Part shown: positions 47,247-57,100 of the stretch, piece after piece
Layout of the letters: each line of letters opens with the position of its first letter
Position numbering within the stretch: the first letter of the stretch is position 1
Source of the DNA: Escherichia phage ESCO5
Length of the DNA: 64,000 nt
Sequence record: NC_047776.2
Reading direction: 5' to 3' (one strand)
Translations under genes and position numbers: made by a program
The notes under the pieces: generated by a model
Seen by the model: the letters and a program-made list of their open reading frames with translations, nothing else
Told to the model about the DNA's origin: nothing
Database searches by the model: none

Positions 47247-47768
47247 TTAACTCCCCTTTGGTAGATAGAAACCATGCACTTTATCTCGATAAACAAGACG
47301 CATATCACGCTCCCAGTGTGTCCTTATATTCCGTTTCTTGAAGTATAGAGCACCTTTAGTAACATCTAAAACAGACCGCAATTCAGGAAAATGTTTCTCT
47401 AAATAAAGTAAACGCTCCGCTATTGCTTTTGCTTCCTGCCATTTATCTTTCTCTGTCACGTTAAAAGTTTTCGCATATGAGAATTGCCCTTTCTGGAACA
47501 AGACTCCCTTGACTGTGTTAGGGAAGTAGGCATCATTTCTTCTGTTGATTACCACATTCCCAACGGCATTCATTCCTTTTTTACCCAGACCGCGACCTTC
47601 TGCGTAAATTGCACAAGCTAATAGAATTTTATCATTATATTGCTTTGTACATTTGTGAACTACTTTAGCGGTTTTTACGTTTGCAGCTTCGGCTTTCGCC
47701 ACAACAGGTGTAAATGTAAAAGCAGTTAAGGATAGTAACGCAACTGTTACAAAGTTTTTTATCAGCAA
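47247..47768 (-). CDS. secreted cell-wall hydrolase (SleB/CwlJ-like)
   Basis: 173 aa; TTG start with AGGAGG RBS; N-terminal signal peptide ending VVAKAEA; core ILLACAIYAEGRG...AVGNVVINRR...FPNTVKGVLFQKGQFS matches SleB-type hydrolase family. Confidence 0.75.
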   Translation of the reverse strand: MLIKNFVTVALLSLTAFTFTPVVAKAEAANVKTAKVVHKCTKQYNDKILLACAIYAEGRGLGKKGMNAVGNVVINRRNDAYFPNTVKGVLFQKGQFSYAKTFNVTEKDKWQEAKAIAERLLYLEKHFPELRSVLDVTKGALYFKKRNIRTHWERDMRLVYRDKVHGFYLPKGS

Positions 47769-47800
47769 ATTTTGCCTCCTTTTTAAGTTAACGAATTTCT

Positions 47801-47829
47801 AGTATAACACGATAGAGGCTTTATTGCAA
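47801..47829 (-). promoter_or_regulatory. sigma70-type promoter for hydrolase gene
   Basis: On minus strand TTGCAA, 17-nt spacer, TATACT, about 30 nt upstream of the hydrolase start. Confidence 0.5.
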
Positions 47830-47849
47830 GAGGGGGATTTCTCCCCCTC
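47830..47849 (-). terminator. stem-loop / terminator after TerD gene
   Basis: GAGGGGGA-gaaa-UCCCCCUC on minus strand followed by UUGCAAU. Confidence 0.5.
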
Positions 47850-47864
47850 AAAATCATTTGTTAA

Positions 47865-48467
47865 TTATGGACATTCATACCATTCTTTTTTACCACCGAA
47901 GGCCATTACCACATCGCAAATATCCAGACCAGCTTTACCTACACCATATGCTTTCAGCTTCCATTCTCCATCTTCACGAACCAGGGAAGCCACGTGGCAG
48001 ATTGTGTTGCCAGCTACTTCAGGAGCCAGGAAGTCAAAATCCAGAATTTCCACATTACGCTCGGAGTCGAAGATTTTAAGCATACCTTCAGAAGCATGAC
48101 CAAAACGTTTCAGACCTGTATCATCATCAATAGTCAGAACAAAGGCAATCTCTTGTGCATCAGGAGAGATTTTAGCCAGAGTAATATCAATCTGCTCCAT
48201 GCTGCCAGTTCCATCACGAACATCGTCACCAGCAAAGGTAGAACGTTCAGGATCAAACTTATTAGCATAGCAAACCAGATGACGTGCAGACAGCATTTCA
48301 GGATTGCCAGCGGCATTGTGACGACAAACCAGTGCACTTACATCCAGATCCAGTTTAGAATCAGATTTCCAAGAGAACTCCAGGCGTAGTTCTTTCAGAG
48401 CCGGAGCAACTTTCTTCAGGGAAATTTTTTCGCTAGAGCCTTTTTTCAGGGAAATTTTATCAGTCAT
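47865..48467 (-). CDS. terD: TerD-domain protein
   Basis: 200 aa; aligns along its length to E. coli TerD: ISLKKG..ISLKK start, LDLDVSALV, GDDVRDGTG, IAFVLTIDD, GEWKLKAYGVGKAGL. Confidence 0.9.
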   Translation of the reverse strand: MTDKISLKKGSSEKISLKKVAPALKELRLEFSWKSDSKLDLDVSALVCRHNAAGNPEMLSARHLVCYANKFDPERSTFAGDDVRDGTGSMEQIDITLAKISPDAQEIAFVLTIDDDTGLKRFGHASEGMLKIFDSERNVEILDFDFLAPEVAGNTICHVASLVREDGEWKLKAYGVGKAGLDICDVVMAFGGKKEWYECP

Positions 48468-48482
48468 CTTTTGTCTCCTCTA

Positions 48483-48752
48483 TTATTTAAGTGTAATACC
48501 AGTTACAGTCAATTCTACTTCCAAAAGCTTAGATGTGTTTTGGATTGATACTAATTGTGCATGATGGTTTAGTTCTACAGCAGAATAATCATTTTCCCCA
48601 TCATCTACTTTTAAATAAACAATGATTTCACTAAGGTCTAAACCATTTTCGTCAAATGCATTTTCATAGACGAAAGTATCTCCTACATCCAAATCTTTAA
48701 TGGTAAGGCATCGTTTATTTACTTTTTGCTCATCAATTTCGAAGTTTAACAC
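48483..48752 (-). CDS. hypothetical small protein (DLDVGDTF family, paralog B)
   Basis: 89 aa; shares IKDLDVGDTFVYENAFDENGLD...VTGITLK with paralog A. Confidence 0.55.
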   Translation of the reverse strand: MLNFEIDEQKVNKRCLTIKDLDVGDTFVYENAFDENGLDLSEIIVYLKVDDGENDYSAVELNHHAQLVSIQNTSKLLEVELTVTGITLK

Positions 48753-48981
48753 TTCTTCCTCCTAATATTATCTCCGGTTTATATATACGAAGAATTATAG
48801 CATTTTCATTTTCTTTGTCAACCCATTCTTCATAATCAGGCCATACATGAATCTCTACTCTACTTACAATATCTTCCATTCGCACAGTCCCAATGAAATA
48901 CTCTTTGAGACTGCACATAATGAAAGCTTCTCTCTCGCGCCAATAATTTTCTATGACTTGAGAGGCAAGCTCGTCGATCAT
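48733..48981 (-). CDS. hypothetical protein
   Basis: 82 aa ORF between vWA gene and paralog B. Confidence 0.45.
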   Translation of the reverse strand: MIDELASQVIENYWREREAFIMCSLKEYFIGTVRMEDIVSRVEIHVWPDYEEWVDKENENAIILRIYKPEIILGGRSVKLRN

Positions 48982-49772
48982 TTTTTAGCACCTACTTTAA
49001 CAACCCACTCTCCGAACTCTTCAGATAAGAGTTTGTCATAAAGCTCTGAATCTGTCAAGTCTAAATCTTTAATGCCAATAAAACCAACATTATCATAAGC
49101 ATTTGCCAGTTCTTTCAGGAAGCCAAACTTCTCATTACCAACGCCAACCATGAACCAATAAATAGGTTTATTCTTATTCTCTTCAATAAGACGACGAACA
49201 GCACTAGGATCACCATTCTCACCATCCGTCTGGAAGAATACAACACCAGGGGTAACGTCAGCACCTGGTTCAGACACAGCTACAACCTTTTCACGCTCTA
49301 CAGATACTGTTTCAGTTTTACCAAGCAGACGATTAAAGAAGCCTTTCTTTGGAGCCTCTTCTTGTACCACTTGTTTAGTGGTAATATATTTGGTAACAGT
49401 GCCAAAATACTCATCGTAGATATCTGCCATTACAGGGGCGTAATTTGTTCCACCTCCGATACGAACATTACGCATACATTTACCAACATAGTCATCGTAA
49501 ACGTCTGCTGTTGCTGGAGTAAGCTCTTGGGAACTCGTATTGAAGGCCCACATATCAATTTGTTGATTATCGTCGAACAGCATACCAAAAGGAAGCAGTT
49601 TACCTACAAAATCACTCACTACCCCACTAGAATATAGACCATGCATACTACCAGAAATATCTAGAGCACATGCTACACGAAGAACAATCTTACCTTCATT
49701 CAGGTTCTTATTCTTTTTCAGAGAGAAAGCAAGGTTTTCTTGACGTTTTTTCAGGCTGATTTTATCGGACAT
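48978..49772 (-). CDS. vWA-domain protein (TerY-like)
   Basis: 264 aa; MIDAS motif in VLRVACALDISGSMHG; GGGTNYAPVM; N-terminus MSDKISLKK resembles TerD start. Confidence 0.7.
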   Translation of the reverse strand: MSDKISLKKRQENLAFSLKKNKNLNEGKIVLRVACALDISGSMHGLYSSGVVSDFVGKLLPFGMLFDDNQQIDMWAFNTSSQELTPATADVYDDYVGKCMRNVRIGGGTNYAPVMADIYDEYFGTVTKYITTKQVVQEEAPKKGFFNRLLGKTETVSVEREKVVAVSEPGADVTPGVVFFQTDGENGDPSAVRRLIEENKNKPIYWFMVGVGNEKFGFLKELANAYDNVGFIGIKDLDLTDSELYDKLLSEEFGEWVVKVGAKK

Positions 49773-49773
49773 A

Positions 49774-50052
49774 TTATTTCTCCTTCTTAAGTGTAATGTT
49801 GGTAACTTCTAAATCTACTTCCACCATATTTGTATCTGGCGGGATGCAATGAGTATAGCCTCGTTGTGCTAGTGATCCATTAATACAAATCGCACTGTTT
49901 GTGGAATTTTTAATGAACACCAAGTTACGGTAGGTATCCAACCCTGCGTCTTCATAGGCATCATAATACATGAATGTGTCCCCTACGTCAAGATCTTCGA
50001 AAGCAATAGGTAAATCCTGACCTTTTTCTTCTTGAATATTGAATCTAAACAC
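49774..50052 (-). CDS. hypothetical small protein (DLDVGDTF family, paralog A)
   Basis: Start moved to GTG behind GAGGAGG RBS, giving 92 aa; FEDLDVGDTFMYYDAYEDAGLD...VTNITLKKEK. Confidence 0.5.
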   Translation of the reverse strand: MFRFNIQEEKGQDLPIAFEDLDVGDTFMYYDAYEDAGLDTYRNLVFIKNSTNSAICINGSLAQRGYTHCIPPDTNMVEVDLEVTNITLKKEK

Positions 50053-50608
50053 GCATACCTCCTCTACCAATTTTGAAGCCCAAATCGTAAGCTTCCTTAG
50101 TAATCTTTTGTAACTCACTTATAGGAAGTGTTACAAGAGGATCATCTTCTTCAATTTCCATCTTGTCATCTTCTGTTTCAATGAGAGTATTATGCACTTT
50201 GTGATAAGGGTTGTCAACACGTTTAAACTTATTCTTTTCTGTGCTGAAAAAACAATCTGGATCTTCTTCACCATCACCCCAACCTTGATTAGGATCTCCG
50301 TCAGATTGTTCTGTAGGGATTTCACCTGTAAAGTACTCTTCCAGCACCATAGCAATACCGTCCCTTGGATTTGAGGAATGCATTAAATCACAAACCTTAC
50401 CCCAATCCATAGCCCATTCGAACCGTTCACGAACGCCATTTTCATCCTCTTTTCCAGAGAAAACACAACCATAACTATCATAGTTGCCATACATCTCTTC
50501 AATAACAACACCGTCTTTCAAAAGAAAGAGGTAGCAAGGTGATCCGTCGAAAGAAGTAGAAAGGGCAGCTTTGCCCGATTCTTTGCACAAAAAACTAAAA
50601 CAACCCAT
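50045..50608 (-). CDS. hypothetical protein
   Basis: 187 aa acidic protein. Confidence 0.5.
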   Translation of the reverse strand: MGCFSFLCKESGKAALSTSFDGSPCYLFLLKDGVVIEEMYGNYDSYGCVFSGKEDENGVRERFEWAMDWGKVCDLMHSSNPRDGIAMVLEEYFTGEIPTEQSDGDPNQGWGDGEEDPDCFFSTEKNKFKRVDNPYHKVHNTLIETEDDKMEIEEDDPLVTLPISELQKITKEAYDLGFKIGRGGMRV

Positions 50609-50811
50609 TACAAACCCTCCTTCAGATTATCAAGAGCTACAGTGGTTTCACAAAATTCTCCATAAGCTTTATGATGTTCCAGAAAAGCTTCGGGTCCACC
50701 CCAGTCATTATCTTGTGTATTCCAACCATCAATAAAAGCATCTTCAATGATTGTGATCAGTTCTTGTCGGGTTAACTGGATAATATTAGGATCGTTATCG
50801 TAGTTAAACAT
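50608..50811 (-). CDS. hypothetical small protein
   Basis: 67 aa ORF; start overlaps upstream small ORF stop. Confidence 0.45.
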   Translation of the reverse strand: MFNYDNDPNIIQLTRQELITIIEDAFIDGWNTQDNDWGGPEAFLEHHKAYGEFCETTVALDNLKEGL

Positions 50812-50977
50812 CTTCTTCCTCCTCTAAAATATGAAACCCGTAATTACAATAGTCCTGAAAGGTTTCGTGCGCAAGATCTTCTATATCCTCTTGAGACATA
50901 TCATCTTCAATTTCGATATCCACAACCTCATTGCATCCACACCAAGCAGTTTCAATATTCACTCGTAATATTTTCAT
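50804..50977 (-). CDS. hypothetical small acidic protein (not in ORF track)
   Basis: About 57 aa; ATG overlaps upstream stop (TAATG) behind GAGGAGGAGGAG; fills 165-nt gap. Confidence 0.35.
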   Translation of the reverse strand: MKILRVNIETAWCGCNEVVDIEIEDDMSQEDIEDLAHETFQDYCNYGFHILEEEEDV

Positions 50978-51174
50978 TACTCCTCCTCCTCATTGAAGTC
51001 AATATCTGCAAGGAGTTCGAATTTACGGAAGTTACGACAACCTTCATAAATATAACAATCACGACAAACTGCTAGAACACTTGGGGGATATATGCCTCCC
51101 ATCGGTGCGAATCGTTTTTCGTCATCATAACGGACACCAATGTCTTCATCAATTATATAGATACGGATTCTCAT
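50977..51174 (-). CDS. hypothetical small protein
   Basis: 65 aa with Cys pairs. Confidence 0.45.
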   Translation of the reverse strand: MRIRIYIIDEDIGVRYDDEKRFAPMGGIYPPSVLAVCRDCYIYEGCRNFRKFELLADIDFNEEEE

Positions 51175-52283
51175 TTACCAAGCCCTCGTTTCACAGCAGC
51201 TACCATCCCGTCTTCCAGAGATTGAACTTCATTAATATAATCAACACGAGCAGCACGGGCTTCCGTATTGATGCGGTTAGTTTCTTCCAACATCTTAACC
51301 AAGTTTTCCTGATCGTGACGCAGAGTTTCAATATCCAACACTTGACGGTTAGCCAGTGCTGCTGCTTCGATCTGATTCTGTGTGGCAAGATCGCTACCTA
51401 GTTTAATTGCCAGGTTAAATTCATCAAGAACGTTATTCTGCGTCTCTGCTGCTTTCATTTGACGTAAGCTCTCGATATACATTGAGAAGTTAGCAGAGTA
51501 AGCAGGAATAACATTATTTACTATGTTACGCGCAGATCGCATTAAGCTTGCAGAAACTTTTTGCATACCTTGTACACGCGGTCCCATTTGGACACACAGT
51601 AGGCGCAACGCCTTTAAATCTGCAATACGAATCTCCAGGAGATCCAAAGTATCTCGGATCACTTGTCGCTGTTCTACGGCATCTTCTGGAAGAGCAGCCA
51701 AAGCTTGTTCTTCTTTTTCATAGGTTGCTGTTAGAAGCTGCATATCTCGGTTCAAACTTGCAGCATATTGTCCAATAGCTTGGTGTAGCTTTTCAAGATA
51801 TACCAAGGAATCTTCTTCTTTGCGAATATCCATTTGAAGGTTCTTTACCAACTCTTCAATACGGTTATTAACATTATCAAACTCCCCAAACAGGTCTTCT
51901 TTCATACCCATAACTTTTTTAATGAGTTTAGTAATACCCTTGCTTTGTTTAATAGAGTTTGGATCAAGTTGTTTTGCCTGTTTAATCAAGGCTGTGAGTC
52001 GTTCACTCATCTGATCGCCTTGATTACTACGTTGATGTTTTAACACCTCGGCATTCAAGGAACGCAAGGTTGTTCCTGCCTCTGCCCCAATCTCTTCGAT
52101 CTCTTGTCGGGTCATAGAAGGTAAAACTGGAACTTCTTGCGGTGCTGCTGGTGCATAAACAGGACTGGCATCTAACACACTTGGAGCAAATACAGATTTA
52201 CTTGCATCTGTTGTTGCAGCGAATACACTCATTTCAGACTTCTTCTGACCACCAGTAGCTGCTTTTAAAAATGGACTTGTCAT
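51171..52283 (-). CDS. TelA-like (toxic anion resistance family) protein, candidate
   Basis: 370 aa helical/coiled-coil protein; assignment rests on size, composition and linkage to TerD/TerC; not motif-verified. Confidence 0.4.
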   Translation of the reverse strand: MTSPFLKAATGGQKKSEMSVFAATTDASKSVFAPSVLDASPVYAPAAPQEVPVLPSMTRQEIEEIGAEAGTTLRSLNAEVLKHQRSNQGDQMSERLTALIKQAKQLDPNSIKQSKGITKLIKKVMGMKEDLFGEFDNVNNRIEELVKNLQMDIRKEEDSLVYLEKLHQAIGQYAASLNRDMQLLTATYEKEEQALAALPEDAVEQRQVIRDTLDLLEIRIADLKALRLLCVQMGPRVQGMQKVSASLMRSARNIVNNVIPAYSANFSMYIESLRQMKAAETQNNVLDEFNLAIKLGSDLATQNQIEAAALANRQVLDIETLRHDQENLVKMLEETNRINTEARAARVDYINEVQSLEDGMVAAVKRGLGK

Positions 52284-52870
52284 TCTTCATTCTCCTCTTC
52301 TGCATCTCTTATATATGGTGAAACACCGTACTCTTTAGCTACTTTAACCCAATCATCCCATTTATACAACCATAATTTTCCTTCAGTTCCTTCTTTATCT
52401 GATTTCAACCACATGTTAGGTTGCTTGCCTGGGTACATGCGATTAGGTTTACGATTATAACCTCTAACACATCTTGTCGCAAACCTATCTACCAGAACAA
52501 GAACATATTTATATTCGTGGTTCAACGGCTCTTTGGAAGTGGCTTTAGGATTAGCTCCTAATTCTGCTGCCAGTTTTTGCCAATGAGCACCGTGTCTACT
52601 AAACTTACCCATACAACCATCAATAGCATGAGCAATTTCGTGCTTCATTGTATCCACGATCATATCTCTTGTAGAGTTCTTATGCAAGTGCCAATTTACA
52701 ACAACAATTTTATCTCGGTAGTTGCACCAACCGAAAGAGTTATTAACTTTGTTTCTAACACAAGCTTTATATCCTGCTTCACGTAACATGTTGTAGTAAA
52801 CAGGAAAATCTTCTTTTATTTCCTGCATCACTTCCCACCACAAGAGTTGCAAGTCTCTCTCGGTATGCAT
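52280..52870 (-). CDS. SprT-like zinc metallopeptidase
   Basis: 196 aa; HEIAHAIDG (HExxH) followed by RHGAHWQKLAAELG, as in SprT/WLM family. Confidence 0.55.
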   Translation of the reverse strand: MHTERDLQLLWWEVMQEIKEDFPVYYNMLREAGYKACVRNKVNNSFGWCNYRDKIVVVNWHLHKNSTRDMIVDTMKHEIAHAIDGCMGKFSRHGAHWQKLAAELGANPKATSKEPLNHEYKYVLVLVDRFATRCVRGYNRKPNRMYPGKQPNMWLKSDKEGTEGKLWLYKWDDWVKVAKEYGVSPYIRDAEEENEE

Positions 52871-52873
52871 AAC

Positions 52874-53467
52874 TTACACCTTAAAAGCGAAATGCGTGGT
52901 CGTGGCTTCAAAATCAGGGCCAGATAAACTTGCACTGAAATCTGAAATATTTGTAATTAAAAAGCTTTTATGCATACCTAACACAGCCACGCTTTCAATA
53001 TCTTCTACTAACATTTCAATCATGTTAGAAACATGGCTGAACGTAGAGTTTTGTTTTTTGATGGTGTAGAAAGAAAGATTCCCACCTGCTATATAAGACA
53101 CCTCTTCAAAATCTTTAATCGTATATTGTGTGCCATCAGTAAAGAAAATGGTAGCTTTATTAGTAGCACGTTTCTTGTTTTTTGGTCCTTTTTTACGTTT
53201 ACTGCGAGTAGGCAAACCGTTTGGAAATACCGTAGCTACAAATTCTTCAGGAGAAACCTCCTTACCGAAATCATAACCGTAAGAAACAGCGTCTATAAAC
53301 TCGTCGTCTTCATTTTTAAAATAATGAAAATAGGGCCAATTTGAGAGATTATCGAGCATCTTATGCTCATCCACAGCAGAGAACGTATCCCTCAAAGCAC
53401 GTGTGATTTGCAAAGCATTAGGCAAACTTTTAACACCTGTAATGGAAGTACGAATAGAAATTGTCAT
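52874..53467 (-). CDS. hypothetical protein
   Basis: 197 aa ORF. Confidence 0.5.
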   Translation of the reverse strand: MTISIRTSITGVKSLPNALQITRALRDTFSAVDEHKMLDNLSNWPYFHYFKNEDDEFIDAVSYGYDFGKEVSPEEFVATVFPNGLPTRSKRKKGPKNKKRATNKATIFFTDGTQYTIKDFEEVSYIAGGNLSFYTIKKQNSTFSHVSNMIEMLVEDIESVAVLGMHKSFLITNISDFSASLSGPDFEATTTHFAFKV

Positions 53468-53481
53468 TGTTTTTCTCCTTA

Positions 53482-53919
53482 TTAACGTCGCTTGCTACGA
53501 GATGAACTCTTTTTACTTAAAGGACTATTGTAAGATTTACGAGTTGTATAGCTACTATTTGTTTTAAAAGTTTGTCTCGGCTTTTCATAAGTTTTTATCT
53601 CTTGTTTAGGCTTACTATAAAAATTAGTTTTCGGTTTAGGTGTATTATAATGCTTATTAATAATCGTTCTGTTATCGTTATAATCCCCACTGCTACGATT
53701 ACTACCGCCACTCATCATATGCCCTAACAACATACCTGTAGCAAACTCACCAACACCGCTACTACTAGAACCGCCACCATTGTTGATAATAGTTGTATCT
53801 CCGTCAGATCCTTGTTGAGCGTATTGTTGAGGAGGTTGTTGGTATTGTGCAGGATTTGTTTCATCCTCGCAAGCTGTTAAAAAGATACAACCAATTAAAA
53901 TCAGGGCTAGTTTTTTCAT
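53482..53919 (-). CDS. predicted lipoprotein
   Basis: Start moved to ATG behind GAGGA RBS; MKKLALILIGCIFLTAC signal peptide with lipobox LTAC; Gln/Pro/Gly/Ser-rich mature part; basic C-terminus. Confidence 0.55.
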   Translation of the reverse strand: MKKLALILIGCIFLTACEDETNPAQYQQPPQQYAQQGSDGDTTIINNGGGSSSSGVGEFATGMLLGHMMSGGSNRSSGDYNDNRTIINKHYNTPKPKTNFYSKPKQEIKTYEKPRQTFKTNSSYTTRKSYNSPLSKKSSSRSKRR

Positions 53920-54106
53920 ATTTGCTTTCCTCGTTTTGGCTATTAATACATCTGTGTTTGAAATCTCCAGAGAAGCAATAAAGTTGCTCTCCATCTCGGT
54001 ATAAACTCACTTTACTGCCGTTGATTACGCTTGTCAATACAAAAATTACAACAAACAACCCTATTGCAAAACAAATATTTTCAAACACAACCAACAAGTA
54101 TTTCAT
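53861..54106 (-). CDS. small membrane protein overlapping lipoprotein gene start
   Basis: 81 aa; N-terminal TM FAIGLFVVIFVLTSVI; ATG overlaps upstream TGA (ATGA); 3' end overlaps lipoprotein start in another frame. Confidence 0.4.
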   Translation of the reverse strand: MKYLLVVFENICFAIGLFVVIFVLTSVINGSKVSLYRDGEQLYCFSGDFKHRCINSQNEESKYEKTSPDFNWLYLFNSLRG

Positions 54107-54453
54107 TTTAAAAATACCTCATCATCAGTTTCATTATCCCAGAAGAACAAGTCCCAACCATTCGGATCATTCCATTTAGCTGCTGGAGAAGTCCATATTT
54201 GCTCGATATCAATATTCAAAACTTCACCGTTTCGTTTTGAAACAGCTTTAGTTAATTCCCAACGGGATACAGGCTCCACTTCCCCTGAACCACTCCCACA
54301 ACAAGCTACCACATTAGGAGGCAAATTAATTGGATCTTTGGTCACAATCATAACGCTTACCCCAGGGTAAACTTTTGAAAGATAATCTAAAACGTAATCC
54401 ACATCACCAGATAAATCCCAAACAAGTTCTTGAATTTCATCAAAATTATTCAT
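54103..54453 (-). CDS. hypothetical acidic protein
   Basis: 116 aa ORF. Confidence 0.5.
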   Translation of the reverse strand: MNNFDEIQELVWDLSGDVDYVLDYLSKVYPGVSVMIVTKDPINLPPNVVACCGSGSGEVEPVSRWELTKAVSKRNGEVLNIDIEQIWTSPAAKWNDPNGWDLFFWDNETDDEVFLK

Positions 54454-54495
54454 AAGTCTCTCCTATAAAATAGCCTCCCGAAGGAGGCTCATCTA

Positions 54496-55470
54496 TTAAA
54501 CAGCAGCTTCTTCTTTTTCAGGGAAGATAAAGCTTGCAATAACACCAAGAGATAATGTGCCTAGAACAATCATCAGACTTACGTTAGGGGAAATATCATG
54601 CGGGAGGAATGACCACTTGGCATGAAGTGTTTCACCGAACGGGTGATACATAAGTTTAGCACCAACAAACACCAGAACCACAGCAACAGCTTTCTCTAAG
54701 TGAACCAGATATTTCACAGCTACACTTAACACAAAGAAAAGTGCACGTAAACCAAGAACAGCCATCAGCATTGCAGAATAAACTAGCAGAGGTTCTTGTG
54801 TCACACCGATTACAGCCGGAACTGAATCAAAAGAGAAGACAATATCTGTAAGCTCAATAACAAACACACAAAGAAGAGCAGGAGTTGCATATTTAATACC
54901 ATTCTTAATGGTAATGAACTTTTCACCATCTAGTGCATTGTGCACAGGCAGAACTTTACCTACTAAACGAACAGCCCAATGCTTAGAGTAATCAATATCC
55001 TCTTCTTCGTCACCACCTTTGATGATAGCCACGGCAGACCAAGCTACAATCAAACCGAACAACACTTGGACCGACCAATGAAGGTTAAACAAAGCGGTCC
55101 CTGCTGCAACAAAAATACCTCGGAAGACAATGGCTCCTGCAATCCCCCAAAGTAAAATCTTATGTTGAAGATGTGTGCTCTTAATTCCAAAGCTTGCAAA
55201 AATTGCCATGAATACCATCAGGTTATCTACAGAAAGACTCTTTTCCAACACATAGCCACTTAGGAAAAGCGCGGCAAACTCTTTACCATGTTCTACCCAA
55301 ATGAATGCGTAATATCCTAAAGCTAAAGCAATCCAAAAAACAGACCAAAGCAAAGCAGATTTAATTCCAATTTCTTTATTCTCTTTATGACCAAAGAAAT
55401 CGATACCAATAGACAATGCCAAAATACCAACTAAAACAACTACATCAATAATTGGGAAACCGAGTTGCAT
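54496..55470 (-). CDS. terC: TerC-family integral membrane protein
   Basis: 324 aa polytopic membrane protein; LEKSLSVDNLMVF and ELTDIVFSFDSVPAVIGVT duplicated TerC signature. Confidence 0.8.
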   Translation of the reverse strand: MQLGFPIIDVVVLVGILALSIGIDFFGHKENKEIGIKSALLWSVFWIALALGYYAFIWVEHGKEFAALFLSGYVLEKSLSVDNLMVFMAIFASFGIKSTHLQHKILLWGIAGAIVFRGIFVAAGTALFNLHWSVQVLFGLIVAWSAVAIIKGGDEEEDIDYSKHWAVRLVGKVLPVHNALDGEKFITIKNGIKYATPALLCVFVIELTDIVFSFDSVPAVIGVTQEPLLVYSAMLMAVLGLRALFFVLSVAVKYLVHLEKAVAVVLVFVGAKLMYHPFGETLHAKWSFLPHDISPNVSLMIVLGTLSLGVIASFIFPEKEEAAV

Positions 55471-55551
55471 TCTTTTCTCCTCTCTTTGCGGGGAACTATT
55501 CCCCGCTTCATTTGATATATATCTTACTCTTTTTAAGAACTATGTCAACAC

Positions 55552-55773
55552 TTATTTTGTTGAATGAGAGGAAAAGATTCCTCGTAATACCGCCAGAATA
55601 AACGAAACACAAACCACGGTCCAGAAGGTTACTGGGACAGTGATATCTGCATGACCCATAACTTCAGCAACATAGTTGTAAGCCAGCAACAGTAACCAAG
55701 CTGGAATCAAACTAAGCATAAAAGCAATAACAAAAAAGCTTACCACCGCAATAATACCTGCAAAAACACCCAT
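55552..55773 (-). CDS. small membrane protein
   Basis: 73 aa; 2-3 hydrophobic segments. Confidence 0.45.
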   Translation of the reverse strand: MGVFAGIIAVVSFFVIAFMLSLIPAWLLLLAYNYVAEVMGHADITVPVTFWTVVCVSFILAVLRGIFSSHSTK

Positions 55774-55785
55774 ACTAATCTCCTC

Positions 55786-56259
55786 TTAAAGTTTATAAAT
55801 AGTCACATCGTGACCTGTTTTTACTAAAGTTTCTTCAATCATCACTTGGATGATAGCCCAATTACCTCCAGCATATCCAGCGCCAATCATAGGTAAGCCG
55901 ATCTTACATTTTTGGTCACGGAGAAGCACATCATTAGCCATAGCTATTAGTGCATCGTAAAGTGCATCATAGTCCAACTGACGACCTTTAGCATTGTATC
56001 CGTAACGGTATTGCCCGTATAGATTATATACCAAAGGGTCTGATTGTTCGTCTGGCACCCCTAAACTAAAAGAACCTAACTTACTTTGATCACCAGCCAT
56101 TGTGTCTAAATCTGCCGCATATGCATAAGGGAATGCTCGTTTAATTTGCGGAGCAATTCCTGCCCCCATATTACACATACAATTGCAACAATGAGCAATA
56201 ACAGTTACTTCACCTGCTTTAGCGGCATCAATAAGATTACCTGTTTTCATTTTAAGCAT
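55786..56259 (-). CDS. macro-domain protein (TARG1/DarG-type)
   Basis: Start moved to ATG behind AAGGAG RBS (158 aa); VIAHCCNCMCNMGAGIAPQI matches the AHCxxxxCxMGAGIA motif of TARG1-like macrodomains; IGLPMIGAGYAGG second motif. Confidence 0.65.
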   Translation of the reverse strand: MLKMKTGNLIDAAKAGEVTVIAHCCNCMCNMGAGIAPQIKRAFPYAYAADLDTMAGDQSKLGSFSLGVPDEQSDPLVYNLYGQYRYGYNAKGRQLDYDALYDALIAMANDVLLRDQKCKIGLPMIGAGYAGGNWAIIQVMIEETLVKTGHDVTIYKL

Positions 56260-56272
56260 TTTTAGCTCCTTA

Positions 56273-57100
56273 TTACAGAATGTGTTGTTTTGTGTAACGA
56301 TCCAAGAATTCAAAGTTTTCAGCATACTTTGAAATTCGGTTGTAACCTTCTCCCAAACATCCGAAGAAAAGTTGCTCTACATAGTAGTGTGGCAATTGGC
56401 TAAGAATGATTTTGAAGTCTTCGTGATTTTGGCCCATAAGATACTTAATAGGACGAACAAGACACTGTGCATCACGTTCTTCATTAATCATTTTAACAAA
56501 CGCTTCTGGTGTATTGATATAGTTAAAATTCAGTTTAGCTTCAGTATCTGCTTGATTACCTTCATATTTTGCAAAATACAAGAAGTAAACATCATTTTTA
56601 ACTTGATTTTCATCAAGAATCTCAATCAGTTTGTCTTCATGAGTTCCGGTGATATTTACATCATCAATGAACACAAGCTTCTTATCACCCCAGAATTCTT
56701 TGTTGCAGTAGAATGTATCCCCATCAATAAGTTTCTTACGACTAGCTTTATCCAAGAAACCATAATCGTTGATATAGCTAACTTTACGATGAATAATATC
56801 CAGTTCTGCTGAACGACCTTGATCATATTGTGCTTGCAACATATTAAAGTAATTAATAAAATGATCTGTCATCATTGTTGCAGCATTGTGCACATGGTTA
56901 TAAGGAGAAGGGATGATAACAAATTGTTCCCCAATATGTTTCATTGCCACTTGAGCAAAAAACTGAAGTACCAATTCTTTACCCATACGACGCGCAGCTT
57001 GGTTACTACCAAATTTCAATTTTGAATAGTCTTTGATATCAAAAGTAGCAGTTTCCAGGTCATCAAATTTATTTGCAAAAATTTGAGTTTGATTACGCAT
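56273..57100 (-). CDS. phosphoribosyltransferase (type I PRTase fold)
   Basis: 275 aa; PRPP-binding motif KKLVFIDDVNITGTHE. Confidence 0.65.
   Translation of the reverse strand: MRNQTQIFANKFDDLETATFDIKDYSKLKFGSNQAARRMGKELVLQFFAQVAMKHIGEQFVIIPSPYNHVHNAATMMTDHFINYFNMLQAQYDQGRSAELDIIHRKVSYINDYGFLDKASRKKLIDGDTFYCNKEFWGDKKLVFIDDVNITGTHEDKLIEILDENQVKNDVYFLYFAKYEGNQADTEAKLNFNYINTPEAFVKMINEERDAQCLVRPIKYLMGQNHEDFKIILSQLPHYYVEQLFFGCLGEGYNRISKYAENFEFLDRYTKQHIL

Follow-up and report, generated by a model that had tools for sequence, protein, structure and literature searches.

A small membrane protein gene and an overlapping lipoprotein gene of Escherichia phage ESCO5 are very probably genuine and not a spanin pair

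We analyzed a 64,000-nucleotide (nt) stretch of the Escherichia phage ESCO5 genome (NC_047776.2), hereafter the window, and focused on two overlapping genes, one encoding an 81-amino-acid (aa) membrane protein and the other a predicted lipoprotein. Our findings indicate that these are very probably two real genes that do not encode spanins, and that the two, which are co-oriented and probably co-transcribed, probably represent accessory genes of the envelope. An initial annotation of the sequence had noticed that the arrangement resembles overlapped i-spanin/o-spanin pairs, and had offered a superinfection-exclusion or receptor-blocking lipoprotein as an equally plausible reading. The elements of the pair, which lies in a part of the window where all genes are on the minus strand, are as follows.

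54103-54121, minus strand: start region of the small open reading frame (ORF), with a Shine-Dalgarno sequence TGAGG at 54117-54121, 10 nt 5' of the start
53861-54106, minus strand: small bitopic membrane protein, 81 aa (supported by the ORF, phrog_17591, alignment and predicted secondary structure)
53928-53932, minus strand: Shine-Dalgarno sequence GAGGA, 8 nt 5' of the lipoprotein ATG and within the small ORF
53482-53919, minus strand: lipoprotein gene, 145-aa precursor, including the TAA stop at 53482-53484 (phrog_21570/32479, homologue alignment)
53861-53919, minus strand: 59-nt dual-coding overlap; with respect to the small ORF, the lipoprotein is read in frame +1

The 81-aa ORF begins MKYLLVVFENICFAIGLFVVIFVLTSVIN and has a single hydrophobic stretch, with a maximum 19-residue hydropathy (KD19) of 2.64; the N-terminal transmembrane (TM) segment and the 59-nt overlap with the lipoprotein start were thus both described correctly at the outset. 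Within the overlap the same nucleotides code for the C-terminus of the small protein, YEKTSPDFNWLYLFNSLRG, and, in the +1 frame, for the signal peptide and the lipobox (LTAC) of the lipoprotein, MKKLALILIGCIFLTACEDE. The open frame carrying MKKLALILIGCIFLTAC extends over 53482-53994, and the precursor of 145 aa begins at its MKKL start, the ATG at 53917-53919. Public annotations place the lipoprotein start at three positions, yielding products of 170, 145 and 102 aa. With the longest, 25 residues would precede the signal peptide and the overlap would grow to 134 nt; the shortest would lack the signal peptide, and the 145-aa start is the one with a good Shine-Dalgarno site and a normal signal peptide. 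The same two overlapping coding sequences are carried in public records as hypothetical proteins, some of them auto-labelled "Lipoprotein" by UniProt, and a regular-expression scan of the window found a canonical lipobox in this lipoprotein only.

A closer examination of the lipoprotein distinguishes four parts.

53869-53919, minus strand: classical SPII-type signal peptide ending in the lipobox LTAC; lipidation is predicted at Cys17, and Glu occupies +2
53761-53868, minus strand: acidic Gln/Pro/Gly/Ser-rich spacer, residues 18-53, predicted disordered
53704-53760, minus strand: conserved core SGVGEFATGMLLGHMMSGG, with a glycine-zipper-like face GxxxGxxxS
53485-53703, minus strand: polycationic Ser/Lys/Thr/Asn/Tyr/Arg-rich tail, predicted disordered, isoelectric point (pI) about 10.4, ending in KRR

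The protein is long and rich in Gln, Pro and Ser, as first reported. Its mature form has about 128 residues, a pI of 9.7 and roughly 6% Pro, and the lipidated residue is its sole Cys. The AlphaFold2 (AF2) model is of low confidence (predicted local distance difference test, pLDDT, 49.6) and gives the mature chain a single helix, residues 56-69 within the core, with pLDDT of about 72 over residues 61-70. This helix is weakly hydrophobic: no 19-residue window beyond the signal peptide exceeds the KD19 of 1.37 of the signal peptide itself. Pfam returned no match to the lipoprotein at E<=1, and sequence searches of Pfam, NCBIfam, PADLOC and PDB with it and its family gave only signal-peptide or low-complexity matches.

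The small protein combines a TM helix at about residues 2-29 with a part of about 50 residues that carries the invariant motif GEQxYCF...K..C and its two Cys. The AF2 model, indicative only given its low confidence (pLDDT 59.9), shows the helix at 2-29, three short strands over residues 33-55, a disordered linker and an 8-residue C-terminal helix at 72-79. It shows no coiled coil, in line with the early description of this protein as short and lacking an obvious one. Because the two invariant Cys lie in the C-terminal part, the region after the TM helix is probably periplasmic. The small protein would then probably be a separate, Stephanstirmvirinae-specific inner-membrane protein of N-in/C-out orientation with a disulfide-bonded periplasmic domain, which may or may not interact with the lipoprotein. 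Searches of Pfam, NCBIfam, PADLOC and PDB with its sequence gave nothing past signal-peptide or low-complexity matches. A natural 70-aa variant of the protein (P0110), present on two metagenomic contigs, one of 143.9 kb, ends in ...SPDF and is cut just inside the overlap (53861-53893 region), so that the C-terminal helix may be dispensable.

The window belongs to a Phapecoctavirus, a phAPEC8-like Escherichia coli myovirus of about 150 kb. Its region 52800-55500 matches phage nieznany at 99.1% identity and about 50 further records at 95% or more. By tblastn, the small protein was matched in 130 phage records, from Phapecoctavirus, the phiWec179 group and Justusliebigvirus, and the lipoprotein in 63 Phapecoctavirus records and five Klebsiella phages. 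The lipoprotein also occurs in Justusliebigvirus (for example in BME3, PaulScherrer and as Phi92_gp180); tblastn with the window protein missed these homologues, probably through low-complexity masking. The two products fall into separate PHROG families. Homologues of the lipoprotein at 31-47% identity share 29 invariant columns and keep the lipobox Cys, the core GVGxFATGMxLGHMxS and the C-terminal RR; the invariant positions of the core are G55, G57, F59, A60, T61, G62, M63, L65, G66, H67, M68 and S70. Those of the small protein, at 45-96% identity, share 16 invariant residues and keep E9, C12, F13, G16, GEQxYCF, K50 and C53. Judged from these alignments, the conservation of the pair exceeds chance. 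Three records that name other hosts (Campylobacter phage B15, Acinetobacter phage vB_AbaM_ABPW7 and Klebsiella phage ZCKP1) share about 99% identity with E. coli Phapecoctavirus over this region, and a contig (L018) of a metagenome-assembled genome (MAG) labelled "Proteobacteria bacterium" contains the same phage sequence; the host or bin labels of these four records may be unreliable.

Several features do recall an overlapped two-component spanin, that is, a second such system in which an 81-aa i-spanin and a lipoprotein o-spanin would fuse the membranes at lysis. A protein with an N-terminal TM segment and a remainder that appears periplasmic is followed by a lipoprotein gene overlapping it in the +1 frame, the Glu at +2 permits sorting to the outer membrane, an endolysin gene lies 5.7 kb downstream in the same orientation, and PHROG profiles give weak matches to Rz-like spanins, confined to the signal peptide. 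This phage group, however, already has a catalogued pair: Kongari et al. (2018) described phAPEC8 gp121 (130 aa, coiled coil at 42-106) and phAPEC8_00146 (114 aa) as overlapped i- and o-spanins of the phi92 family (PMC6139136). These canonical spanins are absent from the 64-kb window; in nieznany they are found, at 100% identity, at 140544-140933, about 59 kb from the studied pair at 81238-81862. The canonical i-spanin was recovered in 132 phage records.

The two proteins also depart from spanin architecture. In place of the long helical or coiled-coil domain of an i-spanin, which can reach across half the periplasm, the small protein has some 50 periplasmic residues predicted, at low confidence, to lack a coiled coil. 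A mature o-spanin is short and Pro-rich, usually has a periplasmic Cys for covalent homodimers and pairs with the C-terminus of the i-spanin, whereas most of the mature lipoprotein is a cationic disordered tail, and it has neither a high Pro content nor a second Cys. In E. coli, the +2 rule makes Asp a Lol-avoidance signal for inner-membrane retention. The residue at +2 is Asp (CDD or CDS) in 8/8 close homologues, all of which keep the lipobox Cys, and in 28/67 (42%) of the lipobox-bearing representatives of the wider family described below, in which Glu occurs only in the cluster of this phage. This bias points to the inner membrane or periplasm rather than an outer-membrane receptor, and inner-membrane retention, predicted for the relatives with Asp, would be incompatible with an o-spanin role. 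The pair is not obligate either, since phiWec186 and four metagenomic contigs keep the small ORF and have lost the lipoprotein, and members of the lipoprotein family occur in other phages with no such TM partner, or directly after complete Rz/Rz1 pairs. Taken together, this evidence leads us to reject the spanin pair of the initial annotation, and a second spanin system in this phage appears very improbable.

The history of the overlap leads to the same view. The small protein of Justusliebigvirus and of the Klebsiella phages has 68 aa and overlaps the lipoprotein by just 14 nt, and from this difference between sister genera we conclude that the 59-nt overlap is, as far as sequence comparison goes, a lineage-specific, non-ancestral 3' extension of the small ORF into the signal-peptide codons of the lipoprotein. 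The phiWec group shares the extension of the small ORF in genomes that have no overlapping gene. The overlap reflects genome compaction and translational coupling, not nesting of the spanin type.

In phiWec186 and the four contigs (L007-L010), TerC is followed by the 116-aa ORF that also precedes the pair in the window, by an 80-aa small protein and then by a homologue of the 197-aa ORF that follows the pair, with no lipoprotein in between. DNA alignment shows that in phiWec186 the small ORF still closes with the former signal-peptide stretch, but that the lipoprotein gene has lost its ATG, its Cys codon and its entire body. A six-frame hidden Markov model scan of its complete genome with three family profiles found no lipoprotein; the best match (E = 0.03) was the signal peptide of the canonical o-spanin, against positive controls at 1e-28 to 1e-97, and the canonical spanin pair is retained. 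This deletion in a sister lineage shows, at the level of genome comparison, that the lipoprotein is dispensable.

The least credible alternative is that one or both ORFs are non-functional, the small ORF or its C-terminal extension being, for instance, a by-product of the region upstream of the lipoprotein: annotators differ on the lipoprotein start, the shortened 70-aa variant exists and both ORFs are known here from sequence alone, but the invariant residues retained by both proteins across divergent homologues, the Shine-Dalgarno sites at both ORFs and the persistence of the small ORF with its extension in the lineage without the lipoprotein all argue against it.

To place the lipoprotein in a wider context, we searched a profile of its N-terminal 75-100 residues against 1.84 billion proteins. 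This recovered a family of 74 cluster representatives at E<=1e-3, in which the cluster of the window protein scores E = 2.5e-22 and which is covered by no entry of Pfam, NCBIfam, PADLOC or PDB. A lipobox is present in 67 of the 74 representatives. It is followed by a Gln/Pro-rich spacer of 38-146 residues, often closing with PAPV(I/V)VQ, and by the invariant 18-residue helix that anchors the family, of the type xSGxGDxxTGMxLGHMxSGG(G); the motif TTVVNKT(V)VNKT is frequent. The tails, rich in Ser, Tyr, Arg and Lys, are net positive in 50/50 cases with a median pI of 11.3, and 28/74 representatives end in RRR. The window protein has all four elements, namely lipobox, Gln/Pro-rich spacer, core and polycationic tail with an R/K end, and its distance of 38 residues from Cys to core is the shortest of the family (median 53). 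A spacer of about this length would be too short to cross the periplasm.

About 12 genomic contexts were sampled for the 74 representatives, and every one of them was phage-like, as a group heterogeneous, which fits the behavior expected of an autonomous accessory gene. In P22-like contigs (L020-22, L026) the gene closes an early operon and is convergent with a P22-type tailspike gene; elsewhere it lies among ribonucleotide reductase and ThyX genes (L036) or among small unannotated ORFs (L037), and in many other phages no small TM protein of this kind accompanies it. In an Erwinia tasmaniensis prophage (L017, 5854-6441) and two IMG/VR contigs (L025, 4995-5531; L029, 1343-1888), which form one related lineage of prophage-like contigs, it follows holin, endolysin and Rz genes on the same strand. 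The Rz gene there already contains a typical, embedded Pro-rich Rz1, and in L025 the family gene and Rz share a GTGA start/stop overlap. The next gene in these three contigs is conserved and encodes about 164 aa; the N-terminus of its product is basic and the tail is rich in His, Ser and Asp.

One relative (L030, 4773-5222) is circularly permuted: its signal peptide is followed by a basic Ser/Arg/Tyr region, the core GGFLTGMLMGHMM, the Gln/Pro spacer and a C-terminal TM anchor. It is flanked by a Band_7/SPFH lipoprotein gene and, immediately downstream, by an SLT-domain gene. Since the basic region here directly follows the signal peptide, the order argues for a periplasmic location of both core and basic region, and for a spacer that is always next to the membrane anchor. 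A core helix that truly spans the membrane and leaves the tail in the cytoplasm had been considered because of the positive-inside rule and of adjacent genes for cytoplasmic amidoligases; it was set aside as less probable in view of the weak hydrophobicity of the helix and of this permuted relative. A unimolecular spanin of the T1 gp11 type was rejected likewise, as the weakly hydrophobic helix 56-69 precedes a 73-residue tail and L030 speaks against a core that crosses the membrane. Genes for ATP-grasp-type amidoligases lie directly 3' of two relatives (GSP_synth in L031, 4644-6777; COOH-NH2_lig in L015, 816-1935), an adjacency that parallels E. coli ygiB (DUF1190)-ygiC. With such neighbors, one may ask whether enzymes modify the tails of the relatives, and to which side of the membrane the tails are exposed.

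A scan of 185,579 species genomes, by strict pattern with tblastn confirmation, gave three confirmed loci: this phage in a MAG, a 420-nt contig and the Erwinia prophage. A low frequency of the family in bacterial genomes is therefore only suggested. A tblastn search of the phage collection with the Erwinia-type member gave no match, probably because of low-complexity masking.

The immediate neighbors of the pair are the following.

54103-54453, minus strand: acidic 116-aa ORF, upstream, phrog_27498 (unknown function)
52874-53467, minus strand: 197-aa ORF, downstream, phrog_27550 (unknown function), 14 nt past the lipoprotein stop

The small-ORF start overlaps the stop of the 116-aa ORF in an ATGA at 54103-54106, and the two are probably translationally coupled; the 116-aa ORF was found only in the Phapecoctavirus and phiWec lineages. 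Between it and TerC lies a terminator-like hairpin, AGCCTCCTTCGGGAGGCT, with a T-rich tail (54472-54489, minus strand), so the 116-aa, 81-aa and lipoprotein genes may form, with the genes downstream, a separate or attenuated transcription unit. Promoter-like sites were no more common than in shuffled sequences (42 vs 34.8 +/- 5.9), and we therefore make no promoter claim.

At a larger scale, the pair is embedded in a cluster of genes related to Ter (tellurite-resistance-like) systems.

47247-57100, minus strand: phage Ter-like cluster as a whole (Pfam)
56273-57100, minus strand: PRTase_3
55786-56259, minus strand: Macro
55552-55773, minus strand: 73-aa multi-TM ORF with two or three hydrophobic segments, phrog_16065 (unknown function), just upstream of TerC
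54496-55470, minus strand: TerC-family integral membrane protein (Pfam TerC, E = 3e-40), directly upstream of the 116-aa/81-aa/lipoprotein unit
52280-52870, minus strand: SprT-like
51171-52283, minus strand: TelA, separated by several small ORFs from the vWA-TerF-like gene
48978-49772, minus strand: vWA-TerF-like
47865-48467, minus strand: TerD
47247-47768, minus strand: Hydrolase_2 endolysin, at the end of the cluster

The position of the pair, between TerC and TelA, is common to the window, Justusliebigvirus, the Klebsiella phages and related metagenomic contigs. Both Justusliebigvirus and the Klebsiella phages, as well as the phiWec lineage, show the gene order of the cluster. For Ter systems carried by phages, a role in competition with superinfecting phages or in resistance to xenobiotics has been proposed (PMC7824862; PMC8386662); the literature on these systems does not discuss the two genes studied here. 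The TerC, TerD and TerZ-like genes of the unrelated podovirus GAP52 (L014, 4977-8252), a Cronobacter phage, also run into a putative endolysin gene, and this recurring adjacency hints at a link of Ter genes with late envelope events. The small proteins beside TerC in GAP52 proved unrelated to the 81-aa protein.

With regard to function, we tentatively favor, at slightly less than even confidence, a lipoprotein that acts as an accessory periplasmic effector of the envelope, in protection against or exclusion of competing phages. This reading, drawn from gene content and sequence features, is preferred because the gene behaves as an autonomous accessory gene and lies in a Ter module, and it fits the proposed action of such modules against superinfecting phages. 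Of the two readings initially regarded as equally plausible, then, the spanin fails, and the superinfection-exclusion or receptor-blocking lipoprotein stays a candidate, the gene behaving as a dispensable accessory gene in a Ter-like cluster. Following Sec export and lipidation, the mature chain would be wholly periplasmic and tethered to a membrane, which in most relatives (Asp at +2) would be the inner one. The flexible spacer would allow the glycine-zipper helix to dock on the membrane or on a membrane-protein helix, and the cationic tail would bind anionic components of the envelope. The outcome would be a non-essential change of the envelope, most plausibly one that protects against or excludes competitors.

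Several observations weigh against an effector of this kind. The Ter link may be positional only, given that the association fails across the lipoprotein family, whose members are found without Ter genes in lysis cassettes, P22-like early operons and nucleotide-metabolism regions and beside amidoligases. Searches of PHROG, NCBIfam and PADLOC revealed no homology to characterized exclusion proteins. The membrane sorting of the lipoprotein of this phage, with its Glu at +2, is uncertain and not predictable from the Asp +2 rule, and both AF2 models are of low confidence, as reported above. Furthermore, the coupling of the family gene to the end of a lysis cassette in three contigs of one lineage, the position of the permuted relative ahead of an SLT-domain gene and the endolysin at the end of the cluster studied here fit a lysis-related role at least as well.

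These adjacencies are the basis of the main alternative, which we consider unlikely yet worth weighing: an antiholin-like regulator of lysis timing, anchored to the inner membrane on its periplasmic side. Loosely as in T4 RI, the glycine-zipper helix would pair with the TM segments of a holin, the polycationic tail would sense periplasmic DNA of superinfecting phages, or both; the holin could be the 81-aa one-TM protein or the 73-aa multi-TM ORF. Beyond the lysis cassettes with their GTGA overlap in L025, the SLT-domain neighbor and the operon-like run into an endolysin, it is consistent with the Asp +2 bias, which suits action at the inner membrane, and with dispensability, T4 r mutants being viable. 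No holin-like gene lies beside the endolysin in the window or in annotated relatives, and the BME3 record names the homologue of the 73-aa ORF "holin". The BME3 authors reported no TM proteins near the endolysins (PMC12210895). Against these points, the gene ends an early operon near a tailspike gene in P22-like contigs and elsewhere is surrounded by nucleotide-metabolism or small early genes, the three contigs with lysis cassettes belong to a single related lineage, and no sequence similarity to known antiholins was found. The holins in those cassettes are unrelated to the 81-aa protein, which makes a specific holin partner unlikely.

Less probable again is a broader version that joins detection and response, in which the family would be an unrecognized, widespread class of lipid-anchored, disordered periplasmic "fishing line" effectors. 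The zipper helix would intercalate with holins or TerC and the tail would sense polyanions such as superinfecting-phage DNA, thereby coupling the detection of superinfection to lysis timing or exclusion. Such a protein could be a lipoprotein analogue of T4 RI that is appendable to lysis cassettes and, by analogy with the E. coli ygiB-ygiC arrangement, might be modified by neighboring ATP-grasp amidoligases.

We regard as improbable a lipoprotein that blocks an outer-membrane receptor in the manner of T5 Llp or phi80 Cor. It would bind the phage's own receptor from the periplasm, prevent superinfection and save the progeny from being lost on cell debris. The protein is a dispensable phage-encoded lipoprotein, its Glu at +2 is compatible with outer-membrane sorting, and the family gene adjoins a tailspike gene in the P22-like contigs, much as T5 llp is adjacent to a receptor-binding gene. 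However, no homology to Cor, Llp or Eex extends past the signal peptide: the matches to Cor (PHROG, E = 0.046) and EexN (NCBIfam, E = 0.12) cover that segment only, and PADLOC gave none. In addition, Asp at +2 in 42% of the family indicates the inner membrane, the mature protein has no predicted folded domain, and the presence of the same core across phages of many hosts and morphotypes is hard to square with a single receptor.

Literature searches on Stephanstirmvirinae lipoproteins and on exclusion yielded nothing about these genes. A large family with no curated model and with phage-like contexts wherever sampled, its placement in the Ter cluster and the natural deletion lineage all appear to be previously undescribed. 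These findings avert a wrong annotation, as the pair mimics overlapped spanins and its layout could fool automated spanin finders, and they place the "hypothetical" lipoprotein of phAPEC8-like and phi92-like therapeutic phage candidates in a broad family for which neither Pfam nor NCBIfam has a model. Knowledge of its role, be it exclusion, envelope protection or lysis timing, would help to explain phage Ter modules and would add a new type of envelope effector; the phiWec179/186-like deletion lineage offers a ready-made comparison.

Compared with known systems, the pair has the layout of two-component spanins (lambda Rz/Rz1; phAPEC8 gp121/phAPEC8_00146), in which the 3' end of a TM protein gene overlaps the start of a lipoprotein gene in the +1 frame, and in either case both products are envelope proteins. 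It differs from them in the beta-rich periplasmic part of the TM protein, with two Cys and no coiled coil, in a lipoprotein that is long, cationic, disordered and free of periplasmic Cys, with relatives that carry Asp at +2, and in genes that are not obligately linked and overlap extensively in one lineage only. Llp of T5 and Cor of phi80, N15 and HK022 are likewise small, dispensable phage lipoproteins of the envelope, sometimes encoded near receptor-binding genes. Each of them is a short, folded lipoprotein of the outer membrane that acts on a single receptor, FhuA, whereas the present family shows a disordered spacer, one conserved helix, a polycationic tail, a bias toward the inner membrane and many hosts.

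Glycine-zipper lipoproteins and DUF1190 proteins (SlyB/Pcp; E. coli YgiB/YjfM) resemble the family in their N-terminal lipobox, in a hydrophobic helix rich in Gly and Met and in a tail of low complexity. Family profile or pattern recovered a DUF1190 protein (P0060) and, beside GSP_synth in L031, a phage protein of DUF1190-like sequence; DUF1190 itself was detected only in P0060, through its N-terminal domain, and the match of the family alignment profile to SlyB is weak (E = 0.029). The likeness to DUF1190 concerns the core and tail alone, the DUF1190 N-terminal domain being absent from this family, and the family has a single zipper helix, not a two-TM hairpin. No functional knowledge is transferable from these families.

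T4 RI shows no sequence or predicted structural similarity to the lipoprotein. It is tethered by a signal-anchor-release (SAR) domain, not by lipid, and binds the large periplasmic domain of the holin T; the analogy that may hold is that of a dispensable, membrane-tethered periplasmic protein of a large lytic myovirus that could modulate lysis. Ter systems of membrane stress and exclusion (TerC, TelA, TerD, vWA-TerF, PRTase) have been described by Anantharaman et al. (2012) and Iyer et al. (2021). Neither of the two proteins counts among their described components, the small protein is restricted to Stephanstirmvirinae and any functional link is positional only. The pair is nevertheless placed between TerC and TelA, in a phage-borne Ter cluster whose gene order persists across at least three Stephanstirmvirinae lineages, and, like the TerC/TelA hub, both of its products are membrane-associated.

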